Below are positions 251-33,391 of a DNA stretch of 64,000 nucleotides, one piece after another. Under the pieces are notes generated by a model that saw only the letters and a program-made list of their open reading frames with translations, was not told the origin of the DNA and made no database searches. This DNA is from a virus, in IMG/VR virus record IMGVR_UViG_3300044731_000789, positions 1 to 64,000 of that record; one strand, 5' to 3'. A program made the translations under genes and the position numbers. The number at the start of each line of letters is the position of its first letter. The stretch's first letter is position 1.

Positions 251-1432
251 ATGCAAAAAACTGTACATATTCAATTTGATAAAGAAAGTAAATATCTTGG
301 CAAAGTTGATCCAACAAAAGATATCAAAGATGGTCATTTCAACATTGAAGTCAGCCATGATGAACATGAAGATGTTGAAAAAAATAAAGATGAAGCAGAT
401 TTTGTTGCAAAGTTTTTAGGTGGAAAATCCAAAATTGATAATGAGAAAAGATTAGAAGGATTGGTTAAAGAAGAGTTGGAACATGAATCATTGGTATTAG
501 ATGAAACATCTGTACCAACAGAACAATCTTTGCTCGAACTTAGCAAAGAGACTTTGAAAAGTTATATGCGAGCAAATGTAGAAGACAGAATTTTAAGAGC
601 ATCTGGTGCAAGTTTCAAATCTGGAAAAGCTGGCGACGAATATAATAAAGCAGATGATACAGAAACCGACGAAAAACGTAAAAAGGGTATGGATAAAGCA
701 ATGGATAAATTAACAAAAGAATCTGAGCAATTGGATGAATTATCAAAAGAAGAGTTGATACAATATATTAATGAAGTTTGTATTTTACATGAAGAGGTAG
801 ATTACGCATCATATACAACAATTGCCCATGAAAAAAGCGAAAAAGCACTAAAAAGTAATTTATATGATGACCATAAACGAGCAATCGATGCACACAAAAC
901 TGCTAGGAAACATTGGTTAAATCTTAGCAAAAAAATTGAGAATGAAGATGGTCAAGGTAGAATATCGAAATCTATAGCAAAATATCATGATTCGCAAATT
1001 CAAAAACATGTAGAAGCAATTAAACCAAAAAAAATGAACGAATCATTTGGTGCAAATATTTTGGCATCTATTATCAATAATAAACCAATCGAGGCACAAG
1101 AACAATTTGGCGCAGCTATGTCAAGTATTTTAAAAACCAGAATTGACAATATGCGCCAAGATGTTGCATCCAGAATTTATAATAATGAAATGAATGAATC
1201 TGTGAACGAGCAATATGGTGTATATCACCAACGACCAGAAGATATTAAAACGGCAAAAGAATACCCAACAAAACCTACTACATTATATCATTTATCAACA
1301 CATTCAACTAAAAATTCTGCACAAAAAGAAGTAGATAATTTAAAAAATCGTGGATATACAGGGTTTTTATTTGCTAACAAAATTTCAGATGCAGAGAAAA
1401 TGCCACATAAAATAGTCAAGGATTTTAAATGA
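251..1432 (+). CDS. Prohead core / internal head protein with a gp67-like segment
   Basis: ATG at 251; ILASIINNKPIEAQEQFGAAMSSILKTRIDNMRQDVA resembles gp67; repeated L(D/L)ELSK and LxE motifs; directly upstream of gp21. Confidence 0.6.
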   Translation: MQKTVHIQFDKESKYLGKVDPTKDIKDGHFNIEVSHDEHEDVEKNKDEADFVAKFLGGKSKIDNEKRLEGLVKEELEHESLVLDETSVPTEQSLLELSKETLKSYMRANVEDRILRASGASFKSGKAGDEYNKADDTETDEKRKKGMDKAMDKLTKESEQLDELSKEELIQYINEVCILHEEVDYASYTTIAHEKSEKALKSNLYDDHKRAIDAHKTARKHWLNLSKKIENEDGQGRISKSIAKYHDSQIQKHVEAIKPKKMNESFGANILASIINNKPIEAQEQFGAAMSSILKTRIDNMRQDVASRIYNNEMNESVNEQYGVYHQRPEDIKTAKEYPTKPTTLYHLSTHSTKNSAQKEVDNLKNRGYTGFLFANKISDAEKMPHKIVKDFK

Positions 1433-2082
1433 AACTAATAACAGAATTATATGATGATGTAGAAATGATTACAGAATCAACCGATTCTGGGAAAAAATAT
1501 ACAATCTCTGGAATATTTGCTCAAGCTGAGGTTGGTAACAGAAACGGAAGAATTTATCGTATGCCTGTTATGGAGCGAGAAATAAATTCATATGTGAAGA
1601 ATTTTGTTAATGAAAATAGAGCTTTAGCGGAAATGTGCCATCCTTTGCACTATCATGTTAATCCAGATAGAGTTTCCCACCGAATTACAGAATTAAAATT
1701 TGATGGGAATAATGTATATGGCAAAGCGAATATATTAAATACTCCGTGCGGAAATATTGTAAAGGCATTTATTGATGATGGTGTCAAATTTGGAGTTTCT
1801 ACACGAGGTATTGGCACATTAAAGAAAAATTCTTCTGGATTAAATGAAGTACAAGATGATTTCAAACTATCGTGTATAGATATTGTTACTGATCCTTCTG
1901 CACCAGATGCATTTGTACAAGGAATCCTAGAAAACAAGATTTTTGATATTGTAGATGGAGTTATTACAGAAAGTATTATTGATAACTATAAACAAGTTAT
2001 TAAAAAATCTTCTACAAAAGAATTAAACGAAATAAAATTTAAATTATTCCAAGATTTTATGAATAATTTAAAGAATAAATAA
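1429..2082 (+). CDS. gp21: Prohead protease
   Basis: MKLITE start, GIFAQAE..NRNGRIY, RALAEMCHP, TPCG.IVK, GVSTRG.G, DIVTDPSAPDAFV motifs. Confidence 0.95.
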   Translation: MKLITELYDDVEMITESTDSGKKYTISGIFAQAEVGNRNGRIYRMPVMEREINSYVKNFVNENRALAEMCHPLHYHVNPDRVSHRITELKFDGNNVYGKANILNTPCGNIVKAFIDDGVKFGVSTRGIGTLKKNSSGLNEVQDDFKLSCIDIVTDPSAPDAFVQGILENKIFDIVDGVITESIIDNYKQVIKKSSTKELNEIKFKLFQDFMNNLKNK

Positions 2083-2083
2083 A

Positions 2084-2091
2084 TATAAATA
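2084..2091 (+). promoter_or_regulatory. T4-type late promoter (gp22)
   Basis: TATAAATA followed by an AGGAG RBS and the gp22 ATG. Confidence 0.8.
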
Positions 2092-2117
2092 ATATTATAA
2101 AACATTTAGGAGTAATC

Positions 2118-2825
2118 ATGTTACAAGAAAATTTCGGAAATCTGTTTGAAGGCCAAGAACTTTCAGACGAATTCAAAGAAAAGGCTACCCTTGTTTTTGA
2201 AGCTGCTGTCACAGAAAAAGCCAAAGAACAAGTTGAAGAAATTTCAAAGGAATTGCAAGAAAAATTCGATAAAGAATTAGAAACAATTCATGGTGAATTA
2301 GTGGAAAAAATTGATAGTGCCTTGAACTATTTTGTTGAAGGTTGGTTAGAAGAAAACAAATTGGCAGTTGAAACTGGTATCAGAACTGACATTGTTGAAA
2401 ACTTTATTACAAAATTGAAAGACCTTTTTACCGAATCTTATATCGATGTCCCAGAAGAAAAAGTTGAATATGTGTCGGAAATGGAACAGAAATTTGTAGC
2501 CATGGAAGAAAAATTGAACGAACAAGTTCAGAAAAATATTGATCTAAATGCAAAAATTGCAGGACTGGTTAAAGAATCTGTTTTTGCTCATGTTGCTAAG
2601 GATTTGGCAGAATCTGAAAGCGAAAAATTTAAAGGTTTGACTGAATCAGTTGATTTTGTATCAGAATCTGACTACAAAGAAAAATTGGAAACATTGAAAG
2701 AAAATTATTTTCCAAAATCTTCCGAAAAAACTGAACCAGTTGTTGAACAAACTTTGGACGAAAGCGTGGCTCCTGATATTTCTAAAGAAGCACAATATAT
2801 TTCAACCAAGTATGCAAACATTTAA
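2118..2825 (+). CDS. gp22: Prohead scaffold/core protein
   Basis: LSDEFKEKATLVFEAAV, WLEENKLAVETGIRTDIVENF, LFTESYIDVPEEK, KLETLKENYF; lies between gp21 and gp23. Confidence 0.93.
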   Translation: MLQENFGNLFEGQELSDEFKEKATLVFEAAVTEKAKEQVEEISKELQEKFDKELETIHGELVEKIDSALNYFVEGWLEENKLAVETGIRTDIVENFITKLKDLFTESYIDVPEEKVEYVSEMEQKFVAMEEKLNEQVQKNIDLNAKIAGLVKESVFAHVAKDLAESESEKFKGLTESVDFVSESDYKEKLETLKENYFPKSSEKTEPVVEQTLDESVAPDISKEAQYISTKYANI

Positions 2826-2928
2826 TAATATATAGACAAATATTTAACGATATGTAAGTAGTGCGTAAGCACCCTAATTGGTTGGAATCTAATTTCCAAC
2901 GAGGACATCGATCCTAGCTCTTTTTGTG

Positions 2929-3065
2929 TACCCAGGGGAACTGGGGAATTAACGGACGTGGAGATTATTAGCTCTGGCTTCGCAACTTCGTTGCTTGGTG
3001 AAACTATGGTCAATGAACCGTCAATTTGTTAAATTGCGTATTTTAGTGAGCTAACAAACTTTCAA
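2929..3065 (+). ncRNA. Stand-alone TnpB omega-RNA (reRNA) scaffold; predicted guide starts at 3066
   Basis: 2929-3028 is 85/100 identical (ungapped) to the reverse complement of 31634-31733 at the tnpB 3' end, with compensatory changes; ends in TTCAA like IS605-family right ends; no tnpB ORF adjacent. Confidence 0.8.
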
Positions 3066-3066
3066 T

Positions 3067-3074
3067 AATAAATA
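3067..3074 (+). promoter_or_regulatory. Late promoter (gp23)
   Basis: AATAAATA; 3068-3084 is identical to 2085-2101; GAGGA RBS precedes the gp23 ATG. Confidence 0.7.
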
Positions 3075-3104
3075 ATATTATAAATTTAAACTAAAGAGGA
3101 TAAC

Positions 3105-4646
3105 ATGTATAAAATTCAGGAATCAGGTCTTGATCAAAAATGGGCAAGTGTTTTAGATAACGATAAATATTCGCCTATTAAAGACAAGCATAAACGTGAT
3201 GTTTTAACCACAGTTTTGGAAAACCAAGAAAAAGCTTTTGCAGAAAGTCGTGAAGCTATTTCAATGTTGCAAGAAGCGGCACCAGCTAACGCAGTTGGTA
3301 CATATGGTAATACTGATGGTATCGCTAAATGGGACAGCGTTTTAATTGGTATGCTTCGTCGTGCAATGCCGCAACTTATTGCATATGATGTATGCGATGT
3401 GCAACCAATGACAATGCCTGCTCAATTGATTTTTGCAATGAAATCAAGATATACATCACAAAGTGGTGCTGAAGCGTTGTTCAATGAATCAAATGCAGCA
3501 TTTTCTGGCACCAATTTGGTACAATATGGCACTAATCCGTCTTCTCCAGAAAATGTTAAAACATCTGGTGGGTCTGATGTAACTATGTCAGCTACTGGTG
3601 GTAGCGCGGCAGTTACATTGACTGGTGTACCTTACAAATCAGGTGCAAACGTAAGTTTGAAAGGTGTTACTATTTTTGACAGCAATGGTGTTGCGGTTGG
3701 TCGTGTATTAACCCATACCGCTGGTGGTACTGCTGTAACATTAGAAGCAAACGCTCCAGCAAGTGCATCAGGCGCAGTATATGCATACAGCTATAGCACT
3801 GGAATGACCACTCCAGAAGGTGAGGCATTAGGTACTCAAGGTGGCGGCACATTCCAAGAAATGGCATTCTCAATTGAGAAAACCACTGCAACTGTTGTAA
3901 CCAGAGCATTGAAAACAGAATATACATTAGAATTGGTACAAGATTTACGCGCAGTTCATGGTTTGGATGCAGAAAATGTATTGAGCAATATGTTGTCAAC
4001 AGAATTGTTGTCAGAAATGAACCGCGAAGTATTGCGTACAATCTACACAACTGCTCAATGGGGCGCTCGTGCTGGTTCTACCAACACTGCAGGCACTTTT
4101 GACTTAGACTTGGATTCAAATGGTCGTTGGTCTGTTGAAAAATTCAAAGGTTTAATGTTCCAAATTGAGCGCGATGCGAACGCAATTGGTCATTTGATCC
4201 GTAGAGGTCGTGGTAACTTCATTATCTGTTCTGCAGATGTTGCAAGTGCATTGGCCATGACTGGCAAATTGGATTATAACCCAGCATTGCAAAATAACTT
4301 GAATGTTGATGATTCAAACGCTACTTTTGCAGGTATTTTGAACAATAAATACAAAGTATATATTGATCCATATAGTGCAAACTTGAATGCTGCAGATCAA
4401 TTCTATGTAGTTGGTTACAAAGGTGAACAATTTAACTCTGGTTTGATTTATTCTCCTTACACCCCATTACAAATGGTTCGTGCAGTTGATCCAGGTAGCT
4501 TCCAACCTAAATTGGGCTTCAAATCTCGCTATGCGCTCACCGCAAACCCATACGCGTCAGGCACTGGTCAAATCATCACATCAGGTGTTGGTCCTGCTAA
4601 TAGCAATGTGTACTATTCTAAAGTAAAAGTACAAAATTTGATGTAA
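3105..4646 (+). CDS. gp23: Major capsid protein
   Basis: LRRAMPQLIAYDVCDVQPM, EMAFSIEK, RALKTEYTLELVQDLRAVHGLDAE, GRWSVEKFKGL, FQPKLGFKSRY. Confidence 0.98.
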   Translation: MYKIQESGLDQKWASVLDNDKYSPIKDKHKRDVLTTVLENQEKAFAESREAISMLQEAAPANAVGTYGNTDGIAKWDSVLIGMLRRAMPQLIAYDVCDVQPMTMPAQLIFAMKSRYTSQSGAEALFNESNAAFSGTNLVQYGTNPSSPENVKTSGGSDVTMSATGGSAAVTLTGVPYKSGANVSLKGVTIFDSNGVAVGRVLTHTAGGTAVTLEANAPASASGAVYAYSYSTGMTTPEGEALGTQGGGTFQEMAFSIEKTTATVVTRALKTEYTLELVQDLRAVHGLDAENVLSNMLSTELLSEMNREVLRTIYTTAQWGARAGSTNTAGTFDLDLDSNGRWSVEKFKGLMFQIERDANAIGHLIRRGRGNFIICSADVASALAMTGKLDYNPALQNNLNVDDSNATFAGILNNKYKVYIDPYSANLNAADQFYVVGYKGEQFNSGLIYSPYTPLQMVRAVDPGSFQPKLGFKSRYALTANPYASGTGQIITSGVGPANSNVYYSKVKVQNLM

Positions 4647-4659
4647 AATATCAAATTAG

Positions 4660-4686
4660 AAAAAAGGGGGCTTCGGCCCCTTTTTT
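4660..4686. terminator. Bidirectional intrinsic terminator
   Basis: A6-G-GGGGC-TTCG-GCCCC-T6 with a C(UUCG)G tetraloop, between convergent genes. Confidence 0.92.
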
Positions 4687-6472
4687 ATTTCTTTCGCCAT
4701 TCTAATTTTAATTTACCGCAATCATATATTCTATATATTCTGTTATAAATTGCTAATTCATGTTCTGTCATTGTTTCATCATATTTTAGTTTTGGATCAT
4801 TTTTAAATCTGTTTTTTCTAAATCCGAACTTATGTTTCCTTTCATCGTTATGGACATATGTATAATCGACAGGCAATCTATCAACAATATAGAAACCATT
4901 TTCTAAATAAGATTCTCCAGTAAACATTTGCAAATCAACAAATGTGTGGATTATATCTAATTTAGAATTTTTCACCAATTTGCTCAACCCACCAACCACT
5001 TTGCATGATGTGGTATACCTAGTTAAAATGTTGCCATTGAACAACATTGCTGCAACAATTTCTCCATTATACTCAAGACAAACATTATATGAATGTACCG
5101 CATACCCTTGGATATGGTATTTCACAAAGAACTTAGTCAAAAATTCTTTCCCAACATTATATAAAACGTTGCATTTCCTGGCAAAAATGCTTATATCATC
5201 ACATTTACCAATAGAATTTTTGATAAATCTTTTAACTATATCAAACCTATCAACAATATCATCTTCATATATATGAATCAATCTTATACCAAGATTTGAA
5301 CACATATCTGTTTTCATTTTGTGATATGTTGATAATTTGTATACTTCTGAATGCCAATATACACCATTTATTTCAAACGCAATATTTTTTTCTGGTATAA
5401 TAATATCTAATTCATATGGAGATATTATTTGTTTAGTGCTATATTCATATGTAACATCTAATGAATCTAAATAATCCCTAATTTTATATTCATATGTAGA
5501 AACTGTATTATCGATTCGTATTTCTATACCATGTCCAGTCAAATATCTGGAAACACATGAGTCAGTACATTTTAAAATAGCGCAAATATCATATGTGGAT
5601 AATTTATTTGTCACATATTGCTCATACATCCAGTCTCTATTATTTAATAAATCCCATGCAAATTTTCCAAGTCTTGTTTCAGAACCTGATCTAACTGGTA
5701 TATTATGTTTATTCAAATAATTTCTAACTGTTCTTTGTGAGCAACCTAGTTCCAAAGCAATTGCGTCCATAGATACCCAATTCACACAATATGCTTTATA
5801 CAACCACAAAAAACTTGATAATTTTTCAATAGCATTTTTGCTTAATTGGTTTTCGGTTCCATTTCTTAACGGAATACCATATTGTTTTATATATTTCAGA
5901 ACAATACCTGTACCACATCCACATATAGAACTTATATCAGATGATGAATATTGTTCCAAAATATATTTCTCATATAACCAATCATATTGTTCCAATGTAT
6001 TTGATAAATCAACTTGACAACAATTATATTGAATTTCTTTTATGCCATGTTTTGAAATCCATTTAGATATAGTTGGGTGAGAAACTCCTAATTCATTTGC
6101 TATATTTTCTTTGGATTTCTTATTTACAATCCTTTGGGTATATAACCAATCTTTATCTTTAAGTTTATCCATAATATTTTTGTTCAATCTTGGTGTAGAT
6201 TGTCTACACAAATCTGAACAAAATCTATTAAACCCAAGTTTGTTGTTTCTCGCGTTTACTGATGTATTACCACCACAATGTTCGCATTTTGGTATATCAT
6301 GAATATTATTTTTGACACAATATATTCTTAGTGAATAAGTTGGTGTTAAACTATTGAGAAATGATGTTTCATCCAACAATTTTGAAACAATTTCTTGTTT
6401 AGACTGTGATAGACTTATTGCAGATTTATTCTCACATAAGTCTATCACATATTGACTATATTTTTTATCCAT
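4685..6472 (-). CDS. Hef/Vsr-like PD-(D/E)xK homing endonuclease with four tandem HTH repeats
   Basis: ELDIIIPEKNIAFEINGVYWHSE...GIRLIHIYEDD nuclease motif; four DWLY...IA.ELG.S...I..HGI-type repeats; N-terminal CxxC. Confidence 0.75.
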   Translation of the reverse strand: MDKKYSQYVIDLCENKSAISLSQSKQEIVSKLLDETSFLNSLTPTYSLRIYCVKNNIHDIPKCEHCGGNTSVNARNNKLGFNRFCSDLCRQSTPRLNKNIMDKLKDKDWLYTQRIVNKKSKENIANELGVSHPTISKWISKHGIKEIQYNCCQVDLSNTLEQYDWLYEKYILEQYSSSDISSICGCGTGIVLKYIKQYGIPLRNGTENQLSKNAIEKLSSFLWLYKAYCVNWVSMDAIALELGCSQRTVRNYLNKHNIPVRSGSETRLGKFAWDLLNNRDWMYEQYVTNKLSTYDICAILKCTDSCVSRYLTGHGIEIRIDNTVSTYEYKIRDYLDSLDVTYEYSTKQIISPYELDIIIPEKNIAFEINGVYWHSEVYKLSTYHKMKTDMCSNLGIRLIHIYEDDIVDRFDIVKRFIKNSIGKCDDISIFARKCNVLYNVGKEFLTKFFVKYHIQGYAVHSYNVCLEYNGEIVAAMLFNGNILTRYTTSCKVVGGLSKLVKNSKLDIIHTFVDLQMFTGESYLENGFYIVDRLPVDYTYVHNDERKHKFGFRKNRFKNDPKLKYDETMTEHELAIYNRIYRIYDCGKLKLEWRKK

Positions 6473-26808: not shown

Positions 26809-27086
26809 AAGACTTGGTTCTATTAGCTCTGTATCTGAGCACATTTTTAACCCTATACACATATTTGAGTATGGATAAAGTGTTGCGAATATATGGTATG
26901 ATTATTTTGATTACATTGGTACAAGCATATGGTTGAATTTTTATTTGCTCTATTGGCAATCACTTTTCCAGTTGCACTGGACAAATTTGGTAGACTAGAT
27001 AGGTTGACATATGGTATACTGTCAACAATATTTGGTTGGCTATCTGCAATATTTTTTATGATGTATATGTTAGGAGTTTATACAAA

Positions 27087-28070
27087 ATGACTGCACAATT
27101 CAAAAAATTTCCACACATCGAACAATTCAAATCATGTATCAAACAGGTACGAGATTATTCAAAATGGAACAATGTTCCTTTACCAAAACTAACCTTTACA
27201 GGAACTGTAAAACTCCATGGTACAAATTCTGCCATTGGATTACATGTCCCAAGTGGTGAACAATTTTACCAAAGTAGAGAAAGATTGATTGATATTCAAT
27301 CAGACAATTATGGGTTTGCAATGTGGGCCAGTGGTTCGGCAGATGTATCAAATCTTTTGAAAATGATTGCCGCCATGTATGGGGCCAAAGAATATGTCCA
27401 TGTGTTCGGTGAAAACGCGGGGAAAGGTGTTCAGAAGAATGTTGGTATTTCCGAATTTGAAAAATCTTTTTACATTTTTGCAATCTCCGTTGATGATGAA
27501 TGGGTAGAATTGGACACTATTTCTAAAACATTTCTGGGCGAAAGAATTTTTTTCATCAATCAATTCCCAACATTTGAAATTGAAATTGACTTCAATGCAC
27601 CAGAATTGTCTCAAAATCAATTAGTAGAGTTAACCATTGCAGTAGAAAATGAGTGTCCAGTTTCAAAACAATTGGGTAAAGATGGCACGACTGGAGAAGG
27701 GATTGTGTTTTCCACCACATGGAATAACAAATATTTATTGTTTAAATGTAAAGGCCAAAAACACAGTTCAAGTCGTGTAAACTCTGTAAAACAAATTGCG
27801 CCAATTGATGTAGAAAAGATTGCCACGATTCGTGAATTTGTGTCTACATGTTTGGGCGAAAATAGATTGGAACAAGGAATTTTCAAGTTAGGTGAAATGG
27901 GGTTGGATGCAACAGATAATAAAAACACTGGTGCATATATCAAATGGTGTGTAGATGATGTATTTCGCGAAGAGCGTGATACAATTGTTGAGTCGCAATT
28001 GGATGTAAAAATATTGGGTAAAGAGTTATCAACTGTTGCCAGGAATTATTTCCTTAATAGACCAATTTAG
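27087..28070 (+). CDS. RNA ligase, Rnl2-like
   Basis: FKKFPHIEQF, motif I KLHGTN, GEGIV, FKCKG. Confidence 0.8.
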   Translation: MTAQFKKFPHIEQFKSCIKQVRDYSKWNNVPLPKLTFTGTVKLHGTNSAIGLHVPSGEQFYQSRERLIDIQSDNYGFAMWASGSADVSNLLKMIAAMYGAKEYVHVFGENAGKGVQKNVGISEFEKSFYIFAISVDDEWVELDTISKTFLGERIFFINQFPTFEIEIDFNAPELSQNQLVELTIAVENECPVSKQLGKDGTTGEGIVFSTTWNNKYLLFKCKGQKHSSSRVNSVKQIAPIDVEKIATIREFVSTCLGENRLEQGIFKLGEMGLDATDNKNTGAYIKWCVDDVFREERDTIVESQLDVKILGKELSTVARNYFLNRPI

Positions 28071-31415: not shown

Positions 31416-31571
31416 ATGTCAAATAAATTCACCTGTGCAGATTTGCATCTTGGGCACAAAAATATTATTGATTTTACTTATCCAAATTCGGATCAAAGAT
31501 TTCGCCCATTTGAATCTGTTCAAGAACATGATCAGATTCTGATAGATAATTGGAACAAGGTAGTTGGCCCA
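31416..31571 (+). pseudogene. Metallophosphoesterase truncated by the tnpB element
   Basis: ADLHLGHKNII...RPFESVQEHDQILIDNWNKVVGP breaks where the GD motif should follow; junction coincides with the omega-RNA 3' end. Confidence 0.8.
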
Positions 31572-31733
31572 TTGGAATTTCGCAGGGATTCTGAGTTAAC
31601 TCAACATCGTGATTGAGCTAACATGAACCATTGCAAATTGACATGTCATCCATACTGGTTTCACCAAGCAACGAAGTTGCGAAGCCAGAGCCAATTATGT
31701 CTATGTCCGTTAATTTCCCAGTTCCCCTGGGTA
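31572..31733 (-). ncRNA. cis omega-RNA of tnpB; predicted guide TGGGCCAACTACCTTG (31571 downward)
   Basis: Overlaps the tnpB 3' end; nested stems; terminal GTTAGCTCAA/TTGAGTTAAC hairpin; reRNA-like layout; homologous to 2929-3065. Confidence 0.8.
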
Positions 31734-32864
31734 TTTGTTCGGTATTCCTAGATCAGATAAGCCTCTGGCTAGAATATTTTTAGCAGCATTTAAGTCTCGG
31801 TCATGGAAAGTATTGCAGGAACTGCAAGTCCATTCCCGAATATGTAAAGACATTGGTGTTTCATGTCTATGACCACAAACATTGCAGTCTCTGCTAGTAT
31901 AATTGGGGTTGACCTTCAAGAATGTTCTTCCGTACCATTTGGATTTATATTCCAATAACCGGAAGAAATCAGACCATGAAGCATCAGCTATAGATCGAGA
32001 TAATCTTTTGTTTTTCAAAAGATTCTTGATTTTTAAGTCTTCTACGATAATAACATCGTTGGATTTTACTATCTTATAAGATAATTTGTGTAGAAAGTCC
32101 GAACGGGAGTTCGATACTTTCTGGTAGATCAGAGCAACTGCTTTACGTTTCTTTTCTCGTCTATTAGATTCTTTTTTGGAACGAGACAAAGCACGTTGGG
32201 AACGTTTAAGTGCTTTTAGTTTTTTCTTTAGAAATCGTGGATTCTCAACAGAATTTCCGTTGGAATCATAAAGAAAGACTTTTAAACCAGCATCAATACC
32301 AATAATATTATTGGTGGCTGGAAATAAATCTACTTGACATTCTACAGAAAACGATATATGATACTTACCAGTGGCATCCAATGAAACAGTTGCCATTTTG
32401 GGTATCCCAGGAAATTCATGGGATACTTTAATTTTAACAGCACCTAGTTTTGGTAGTTTAAGAACTCCGTCCTTAAGGACAATATCCTGCATACGCACGG
32501 ATTTCTTGTTATACTTAGATTTGAATGTTGGTAAACCGGCTTTATTGGAACCTTTTGGTTTCTTTAAATCCCTAAAGAAATTAGAATACGCACTATTTAG
32601 GTCTAATAGTGATTGCCGTAGGCAAGTGCTAGGAACGTCAGATAACCAGTTAAAGTCTTCTTGTTTCTTTAAGATCGTAAGATCAGCAGATAACTGGTTG
32701 TTTGTTAGAGTGATACCTTGTTCTTTATAGGTATCACGTTTTAGTTTAAGATAATGGTTATAGACAAACCTTGAGCAACCAAACATTTTGTTTAGTAGTA
32801 TCTTTTGTTGTTGGTTAGGATAAAACCTAACCTTGAAAGATTTGTTTATAGTATTTTTGTTCAT
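31710..32864 (-). CDS. tnpB: RNA-guided endonuclease TnpB
   Basis: KVRFYPN...FGCSRFVYN N-terminus; RuvC GID, VEDL, DRDLNAA intact; CxxC..CxxC zinc finger. Confidence 0.96.
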   Translation of the reverse strand: MNKNTINKSFKVRFYPNQQQKILLNKMFGCSRFVYNHYLKLKRDTYKEQGITLTNNQLSADLTILKKQEDFNWLSDVPSTCLRQSLLDLNSAYSNFFRDLKKPKGSNKAGLPTFKSKYNKKSVRMQDIVLKDGVLKLPKLGAVKIKVSHEFPGIPKMATVSLDATGKYHISFSVECQVDLFPATNNIIGIDAGLKVFLYDSNGNSVENPRFLKKKLKALKRSQRALSRSKKESNRREKKRKAVALIYQKVSNSRSDFLHKLSYKIVKSNDVIIVEDLKIKNLLKNKRLSRSIADASWSDFFRLLEYKSKWYGRTFLKVNPNYTSRDCNVCGHRHETPMSLHIREWTCSSCNTFHDRDLNAAKNILARGLSDLGIPNKYPGELGN

Positions 32865-32870
32865 TACAAT

Positions 32871-32878
32871 TATTTATC
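32871..32878 (-). promoter_or_regulatory. Late-promoter-like box 6 nt before the tnpB ATG
   Basis: GATAAATA-ATTGTA-ATG on the minus strand; no SD. Confidence 0.55.
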
Positions 32879-33391
32879 AAAAAAGGAATGTATGCCAATA
32901 GAATATTGCAACCATGCTAATGATTTGATTGAGTGCCCAGGCGCTCACAACTACGCTTCGCTAAACACTACGCTGCGCGCTTCGCTGGGGGGTCGTCAGG
33001 CATCCCTGCCTTCCTTCGATGAAATTAATAGATTAAAAAATAAAAATGCTGCTCTTGTCGATGCATTGCTAGAATTGATGACTTACCATCCACGAGAATA
33101 TTGGGAAGGTGTTGGAGCGAACTTGTATAGAAAAACTGCTGGTTCTGCAATATCGAAAACACTGGATAAATGTGATGTGGCATTAAGCTATGGTGGTGAA
33201 GTAAAATGATGATTGATGAAGTGGAGATATGTGAATAATGAGATTTAAAGCTATTTGGATTGCAATTACTAGACCACAATATGTAATAACATGTGATCAA
33301 GGGATGACTTTATTAAAAGAAATTTGGAATTGGACAACATATAAAAACACACCTTGGTACAAAAATACTGAACAAGTATTGAAACAATATT

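Follow-up and report, generated by a model that had tools for sequence, protein, structure and literature searches.

The window analysed here is the first 64 kb (64,000 nucleotides) of a 76,202-base IMG/VR record, IMGVR_UViG_3300044731_000789, whose estimated completeness is 43%. It comes from a T4-like phage in which gp21, gp22 and gp23 are recognised by Pfam, and it carries between gp22 and gp23 an inserted element whose right part is an omega-RNA scaffold (Table 1). This scaffold is referred to below as the orphan, and the scaffold at the tnpB gene, ~29 kb from the orphan insert, as the full copy. The gp23 protein is ~52% identical to those of the nearest cultured phages, which are cyanomyoviruses, and the stretch occurs in runs of lake and freshwater metagenomes that belong to 16 studies. 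Megablast and blastn searches of the phages collection matched no close relative. When IMG/VR was searched with gp23, TnpB and the gp22 of P0137, the best identity was ~54%, and metagenome contigs searched with gp22 gave a best identity of ~51%.

Table 1 Features of the gp22-gp23 junction and of the tnpB locus (positions in the window)
Feature	Position	Strand	Basis or remark
gp21 protease	1429-2082		Pfam
T4-type late-promoter octamer TATAAATA	2084-2091	+	Exact match; upstream of gp22
gp22 prohead scaffolding protein, 235 aa	2118-2825	+	Pfam T4_CASP, E 2e-61
Inserted element, ~243 nt	2823-3065	+	Between gp22 and gp23
Left part of insert, 106 nt	2823-2928	+	No detectable homology to full element
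Orphan omega-RNA scaffold, 137 nt	2929-3065	+	Covariance model, 171 bits, E 2e-31
Hairpin 1, CCCAG-GGGAA-CTGGG	2931-2945	+	Identical in both copies
Long stem with four double-compensated pairs	2955-3022	+	Inner part is the 34-mer, 2971-3004
Central hairpin, GCAAC-TTC-GTTGC	2982-2994	+	Within the 34-mer
Terminal (right-end) hairpin, stem TTTGTTA/TAACAAA	3025-3058	+	
Orphan scaffold and right-end terminus, CTTTCAA	3059-3065	+	
Predicted guide, equal to the vacant-site sequence	3066-3085	+	Family rule for the right-end flank
gp23 major capsid protein	3105-4646	+	Pfam Gp23, E 7e-126
Metallophosphoesterase stump, 52 codons	31416-31571	+	Adjoins right end of full element
Full-element predicted guide	31552-31571	-	Inside the metallophosphoesterase stump
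Full-element omega-RNA scaffold, 162 nt	31572-31733	-	Covariance model, 213 bits
tnpB, 384 aa, the only one in the record	31710-32864	-	All three Pfam domains of TnpB

Presence and absence of the insert at the gp22-gp23 junction

Contigs of four runs were placed on positions 1400-5000. The preliminary description had suggested that an empty site be sought in relatives, and one was found in run X4. Record 10 of this run, from a diverged relative, is 82-89% identical to the window through gp22 up to 2717, lacks the insert and rejoins at 3066, immediately after the TTTCAA with which the scaffold ends. At most 105 letters lie between the pieces that stop at 2717 and resume at 3066, and exactly 105 coding bases of gp22 remain after 2717. 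The 137-nt scaffold therefore does not fit into this relative, whose gp22 stop would most simply be the TAA at 3066-3068. Among seven relatives with 69-89% identity, gp22 is 235-237 aa long, and its C-terminus is KYANI in seven of eight sequences and KYANIW in the eighth. Rejoining at 3066, taken together with the length of gp22, gives an insert of ~243 nt.

Since the motif TAATAA is found at either border of the insert (2823-2828 and 3066-3071), the left border can be placed only to within 6 nt, and the gp22 stop TAA at 2823-2825 represents either the first bases of the insert or part of this repeat. The left flank ends in ...AACATT, and the vacant site should, as predicted from the joint, read ...AAC ATT / TAA TAA ATA.... 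The vacant allele is known by the coordinates of its joint, with a match of at least 85% over 57 nt in the guide region. An exact-pattern scan of IMG/VR for the gp23 leader and the predicted vacant junction returned no matches. The spacer between gp22 and gp23 measures 11-82 nt in 136 distant T4-like relatives (median 36 nt) and 279 nt here; removal of the 243-nt insert leaves 36 nt, the median of the relatives.

Both types of phage co-occur in run X4, where the insert-free type has a depth of 31.8 and the insert-bearing type a depth of 15.7. Insert-bearing contigs from two sources, the independent DNA run X4 and the metatranscriptome run X5, cover the orphan without a difference. The metatranscriptome-run contigs cover 2106-3161 without a difference; they carry no strand or end information and may reflect DNA carry-over. 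Joints with short sides in run X15 (21 letters) were disregarded.

Public assemblies of the phage (Logan contigs) break at 2975/3000, within the 34-mer shared by the two scaffolds, because the 31-mer graph meets a repeat common to the tnpB locus at this point. Short-read assemblies can be expected to fragment the capsid module at 2975-3000.

Homology and fold of the orphan scaffold

Positions 2929-3028 (+) align without gaps to 31733-31634 (-) at 85 of 100 nucleotides (blastn E 3e-28 in the 76-kb record), and the two copies have an exact 34-mer in common; both observations had been made in the preliminary description and were reproduced. RNAalifold run on the two copies gave 27 pairs, four of them changed on both sides, two on one side and none broken, with 10 of the 15 differences falling in predicted pairs. 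The double-compensated pairs are 30-91 (G-C/A-U), 35-83 (G-C/C-G), 42-77 (A-U/G-C) and 38-80 (U-G/A-U), the same four that had been named beforehand. Folding the orphan as a single sequence yielded the same helix as the consensus. In 200,000 simulated sets of 15 random substitutions, four or more double-compensated pairs arose at a frequency of 3e-5 and zero broken pairs at 2e-4, figures that are inflated because the structure was inferred from the same two sequences. These compensatory changes show that selection acted on the RNA structure at some stage in the descent that separates the two copies.

Beyond the 100-nt core the copies are unalignable. The full copy has at the place of the terminal hairpin a longer, unalignable hairpin closed by TTTGCA/TGCGAA, and both hairpins start from the same TTTG. 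It had been claimed that the terminal hairpins differ in sequence and that both form, which proved to be the case, with the full-copy scaffold ending in ATTCCAA (31578-31572) where the orphan ends in CTTTCAA.

At the 5′ side, hairpin 1 begins 2 nt after the break in homology at 2929. In ISDra2 a 116-nt scaffold is sufficient, RNA 5′ of position -116 is dispensable, and bases -5 to -3 pair with bases -105 to -103 in a pseudoknot (PMC10097598). By analogy, the GGA in the loop of hairpin 1 may pair with the 3′ UUYC before the guide to form an ISDra2-like pseudoknot; the putative 3′ partner, which precedes the terminal AA, is UUUC in the orphan and UUCC in the full copy. The orphan would thus keep a complete functional scaffold and almost nothing more, and it is taken as complete because its homology starts 6 nt before a hairpin with ISDra2-like loop and 3′ pairing.

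A covariance model built from the two copies recovered only these two scaffolds in the 76-kb record (~43% complete). A covariance-model search for further copies had been proposed, and the count of one tnpB and two omega-RNA scaffolds in the record holds. A further, weak match of the model coincided precisely with the end of a distant tnpB (3′ side of L093), where hairpin 1 is kept by compensatory changes. No Rfam family was found at gathering or E-value thresholds, and an exact-pattern scan with the scaffold core gave no matches in viral, genome and metagenome collections. Positions 26961-27108 were considered as a third copy (covariance E 0.1) and rejected as a chance match that is not alignable and lies in small coding ORFs. 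The surrounding 26809-27110 is an intergenic-looking stretch that holds small hydrophobic ORFs.

The left 106 nt of the insert contain two small hairpins, GTGC-GTAA-GCAC (2861-2872) and a 7-bp stem (2881-2900). Local alignments of this part to the tnpB locus, including the region upstream of tnpB (129 of 1000 shuffles scored as high), were no better than for shuffled sequences, and no second occurrence was found within the 76-kb record. Its peptide bears a weak, non-significant likeness to the ...NIL.RG... of TnpB tails. It could derive from a left end that has degenerated, or from the 3′ coding part of a tnpB that has decayed. An apparent layout in common with the region upstream of tnpB (CATT, ATTT.A.CGA ~20 nt in, a 4-bp GNRA hairpin) is no better than in shuffles and serves only as a lead.

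The resident TnpB and its own element

The TnpB encoded in the phage aligns to ISDra2 TnpB (8h1j/8exa) over residues 7-375 with an E value of 1e-84. Its GIDAG, VEDL and HDRD motifs align with GVDLG, VEDL and HDRD of the top match, 9yyg, and from this alignment both the RuvC D-E-D triad and the CxxC...CxxC zinc finger are read as intact. At 31710-31760 (minus strand) the phage protein ends in YPGELGN followed by the stop codon, where its closest relatives continue for ~30 residues (IPRGTGKLTD...) in another frame. In the full copy of the phage this tail frame is still open (IPRGTGKLTDIDIIGSGFATSLLGETSMDDMSICNGSC, followed by a stop). The absent tail corresponds to the ISDra2 C-terminal domain, whose residues 376-408 are encoded over the RNA, disordered and dispensable for cleavage (PMC10097598). 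A small frameshifting change has evidently truncated the phage TnpB at the point where the ISDra2 tail becomes dispensable.

The right end of the full element adjoins a metallophosphoesterase stump that is 58% identical to the phosphoesterase of Caulobacter phage Cr30. The first 50 of its 52 residues align, and the similarity to the Cr30 protein stops two codons before the end of the full-copy scaffold. No 3′ remainder of the phosphoesterase gene was found beyond tnpB (32865-33390), so the insertion came with a deletion or with foreign flanking DNA. The left border of the full element, sought by way of the phosphoesterase gene, was not located, because this gene survives as a stump without its 3′ part. 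Upstream of tnpB, positions 32930-33020 are ~50% GC in a genome of ~33% GC and form the small hairpins GGCA-GGGA-TGCC and GAGCGCC-TGG-GCACTC; a minus-strand ORF (33025-33300) runs into this stretch, which could represent the element's left end or be of foreign origin.

The search for tnpA (PF01797) in the 76-kb record gave no match. The intact tnpB provides an effector gene elsewhere in this genome, and its product is predicted to be compatible with the orphan, as judged from the sequence of the scaffolds: the full copy and the orphan share the 34-mer core and both closing stems.

Origin of the orphan from a tnpB 3′ end

In the closest TnpBs from metagenomes (50-58% identity) the tnpB frame continues over the RNA scaffold. 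In the orphan, frame 2862-3032 is open for 56 codons and, from VPRGTGELTD onward, matches the C-terminal tails of these proteins (57% over 49 aa with the tail of P0010, E 2e-9; P0003 and P0002 also match). The final 7 codons of the phage tnpB, together with its stop, lie within the scaffold itself, and no plus-strand ORF of at least 40 aa with a start codon was found in 2826-3104. The orphan scaffold is, as far as these alignments tell, the 3′ end of a former tnpB gene. The statement that no tnpB or tnpA coding remnant is adjacent stands for tnpA and has to be amended for tnpB, whose last 7 codons and stop, and a 56-codon tail-like frame, are present.

The sequences flanking the stem differ in type. 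The orphan resembles P0010-type tails (V..GELTDV, ETMV.E.SIC) and the full copy resembles P0002/P0003-type tails (I..GKLTD, ET.MD..SI), which suggests that each copy belongs to its own lineage of the IS family and that these lineages separated while their elements were still functional. On this view the compensatory changes may date from before the loss of tnpB, when both were complete elements. Covariation had been taken to mean that the second guide is structurally maintained, a conclusion that does not follow, given these tail peptides. Among relatives the scaffold varies most in its middle, yet here the two phage copies do not differ at all in that part (the 34-mer), and this fits either gene conversion within the genome or the need to fit the same protein.

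A third family member appears in run X5 as a loose contig end. Its identity to the orphan is at least 85% and starts at 2929, the point where homology to any tnpB element begins; a translation by hand of the letters upstream gave an ordinary in-frame tnpB 3′ end, ...RGSNPVGQIPRGTG. A GTDB scan with an alignment of the TnpB clade gave nothing above ~45%.

These data bear on whether the orphan is still in use. It is possible, though rather unlikely, that it is an inert relic: either a full-length element formerly located between gp22 and gp23, or a right part captured by illegitimate recombination, that has lost tnpB, a young fossil whose fold was inherited and whose RNA is neither processed nor used. 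The lack of a left end and of tnpA, the single orphan copy and its terminal hairpin, much shorter than that of the full copy, are what such a fossil would display; the orphan shows no variation in the population sampled, and covariation between two lineages can be ancestral. Decay is nevertheless not apparent in the fold, since none of the 27 pairs is broken in the orphan and the sole mismatch in the long stem, 39-79 (A.G), is found in the full copy (by hand count). The end of the deletion falls within 6 nt of the minimal scaffold, and the most variable scaffold part is identical to that of the RNA of the resident TnpB, as would fit protein compatibility or gene conversion.

Our reading is that 2823-3065 is a protein-less derivative of an IS200/IS605-family tnpB-only element, without tnpB and without a recognisable left end, and that the orphan is a stand-alone omega-RNA that the distant TnpB could use in trans against insert-free relatives. 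The two parts of this reading, derivation and use in trans, carry jointly about an even chance of being right. The tnpB-less omega-RNA copy that had been described earlier, with differences that preserve its structure, does end as predicted (TTTCAA/TAATAA...).

Predicted guide, promoter context and a possible homing mechanism

In the IS200/IS605 family the guide corresponds to the DNA that immediately flanks the right end (PMC10691335). Because the guide is the right-end flank, the predicted guide of the orphan equals the junction between the gp22 stop and the gp23 promoter of insert-free relatives. The bases that follow the scaffold, TAATAAATAATATTATAAAT, are unique in the window. They had been identified as the gp23 late promoter, and this is partly so: two octamer-like sequences lie before gp23, AATAAATA (3067-3074) and TATAAATT (3079-3086), each matching the late-promoter octamer at 7 of 8 positions, and in insert-free relatives the first three bases are probably the gp22 stop.

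The scaffold has the same orientation as gp22 and gp23 and lies downstream of the perfect TATAAATA; that it is read through from the gp22 late transcript, as had been proposed, is probable. No terminator-like site was found in 2000-3400. With this octamer before gp22 and no terminator in between, the late read-through transcript should therefore contain the scaffold. Strongly folded and carried in a highly expressed late transcript, with an abundant structural gene on either side, the RNA could also act for the capsid operon and independently of TnpB: it might be a site of processing, stabilise the gp22 or gp23 message, or insulate transcription. We consider such a role very improbable: a spacer of 11-82 nt is enough in the 136 relatives, the insert is missing from a close relative, the RNA folds like the one linked to tnpB, and nothing at the site resembles a terminator.

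If the orphan RNA is used in trans, the following sequence of events can be proposed. The scaffold would be transcribed late within the gp22 message, by read-through from TATAAATA, excised from this message and bound by the TnpB encoded at 31710-32864. The orphan RNA would then direct TnpB to the vacant junction of co-infecting insert-free relatives, and repair of the break, with the insert-bearing genome as template, would copy the insert along with capsid-gene sequence on its flanks. The outcome would be homing, or exclusion where repair fails. This reading in terms of homing or exclusion is plausible, with a likelihood that ranges from a substantial minority chance up to an even one.

Haplotypes from X4, X5 and X8 are identical to the window from ~2010-2070 to ~3300, among the differences listed, and are ~9-14% diverged, again among the differences listed, in gp21 (1473-1608; 1400 to ~2010) and from 3309 on. 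The identical block spans gp22, the insert and the first 200 nt of gp23. It offers a weak hint that the segment around the insert may be a co-conversion tract. Mosaics are common in these phages, and the block can equally be ordinary recombination in a mosaic phage group. A fuller version of the homing reading remains doubtful in our estimation: that the locus is a split RNA-guided homing or marker-exclusion system of a lytic T4-like phage, in which the guide-RNA gene alone is the mobile unit, spreads among related lake phages as the resident nuclease cuts the gp22/gp23 junction of competitors without the insert, and drags capsid-gene alleles with it, the 1.3-kb block being the co-conversion tract.

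The beneficiary might instead be the phage, which would keep TnpB and an extra guide as a domesticated weapon with which to destroy or out-recombine relatives at the capsid junction, that is, for marker exclusion. Several features would suit such a role. The sample also contains relatives without the insert, at higher depth, and the predicted target, a promoter/stop junction, is essential. With no tnpA and a location within a truncated phage gene, tnpB cannot move as a transposon. A review also lists, as a theoretical type, non-restorative homing directed at co-infecting phages (PMC13565253). We nonetheless regard domestication as improbable, as nothing separates a benefit to the phage from a benefit to the element, and one extra guide is present in the 43% of the genome in hand.

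Comparison with known systems

Trans-acting, stand-alone omega-RNAs and the omega-RNAs of PATEs have already been described, and to take the proposed uncoupling from transposition as a new principle would be an overstatement. Stand-alone, effector-less omega-RNAs act in trans with a compatible effector, and their role is called unknown (Altae-Tran et al. 2023, PMC10691335, citing the 2021 OMEGA paper). As described there, the OMEGA stand-alone loci resemble the present one in having a scaffold with a flank-derived guide, no adjacent nuclease or transposase, and a nuclease elsewhere in the genome. They differ in being located in bacterial genomes and in many copies, whereas here a single copy resides in a lytic T4-like phage. 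Unlike the loci so described, the orphan sits between capsid-assembly genes, and its only possible targets are other phage genomes.

PATEs (palindrome-associated transposable elements) often encode omega-RNAs, to be used by the TnpB of another element (Meers et al. 2023, PMC10055086). Like them, the insert is a short protein-less derivative that has kept the right end and the omega-RNA, with TnpB supplied by another element. In a PATE the left and right ends match, with subterminal palindromes, and movement depends on TnpA supplied in trans (PMC10055086), whereas no recognisable left end is present here. The insert contains no gene, as in a PATE; a matching left end was not found, and neither TnpA-dependent mobility nor several copies were seen in the 76-kb record (~43% complete). 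The orphan is thus best filed as a stand-alone omega-RNA from a tnpB element that was truncated at the 5′ side or deleted internally. On present evidence it adds a further case to a phenomenon that is known from bacteria. The analysis contributes the polymorphism of the insertion, the position of its border, a scaffold that is complete by analogy with ISDra2, and its derivation from a tnpB tail.

In comparison with ISDra2, the RNAs are without sequence similarity, and the scaffolds are 137 and 162 nt long here versus 116 nt (Nakagawa et al. 2023, PMC10097598). The TAM of ISDra2 is TTGAT (PMC10097598). The locus is a clean test case, in which a single nuclease is paired with two natural guides that differ in their terminal hairpins and the vacant site is known, and would suit the study of trans-compatibility and of the TAM.

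If the orphan RNA is used, a lytic phage would re-aim one nuclease with a 243-nt RNA gene. Were the homing mechanism true, the mobile unit of homing would be the guide, instead of an endonuclease gene. The locus would then resemble a split gene drive that arose in nature, and would show a simple way in which TnpB elements could develop into multi-guide systems. A 2026 review treats transposon non-restorative homing against co-infecting phages and plasmids as theoretical, with data for plasmids only (PMC13565253).

The arrangement is also like the intronless homing of the seg and mob genes, free-standing homing endonuclease genes of T-even phages, in that an insert is present or absent between conserved phage genes. 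The likeness would extend to the break predicted in the insert-free relative and to a possible co-conversion of flanking markers. In seg and mob homing, the nuclease gene is located within the mobile insert; here the insert has no ORF and the nuclease gene is found at 31710-32864. Unlike in the seg and mob systems, specificity here would reside in an RNA, with the nuclease encoded 29 kb away.
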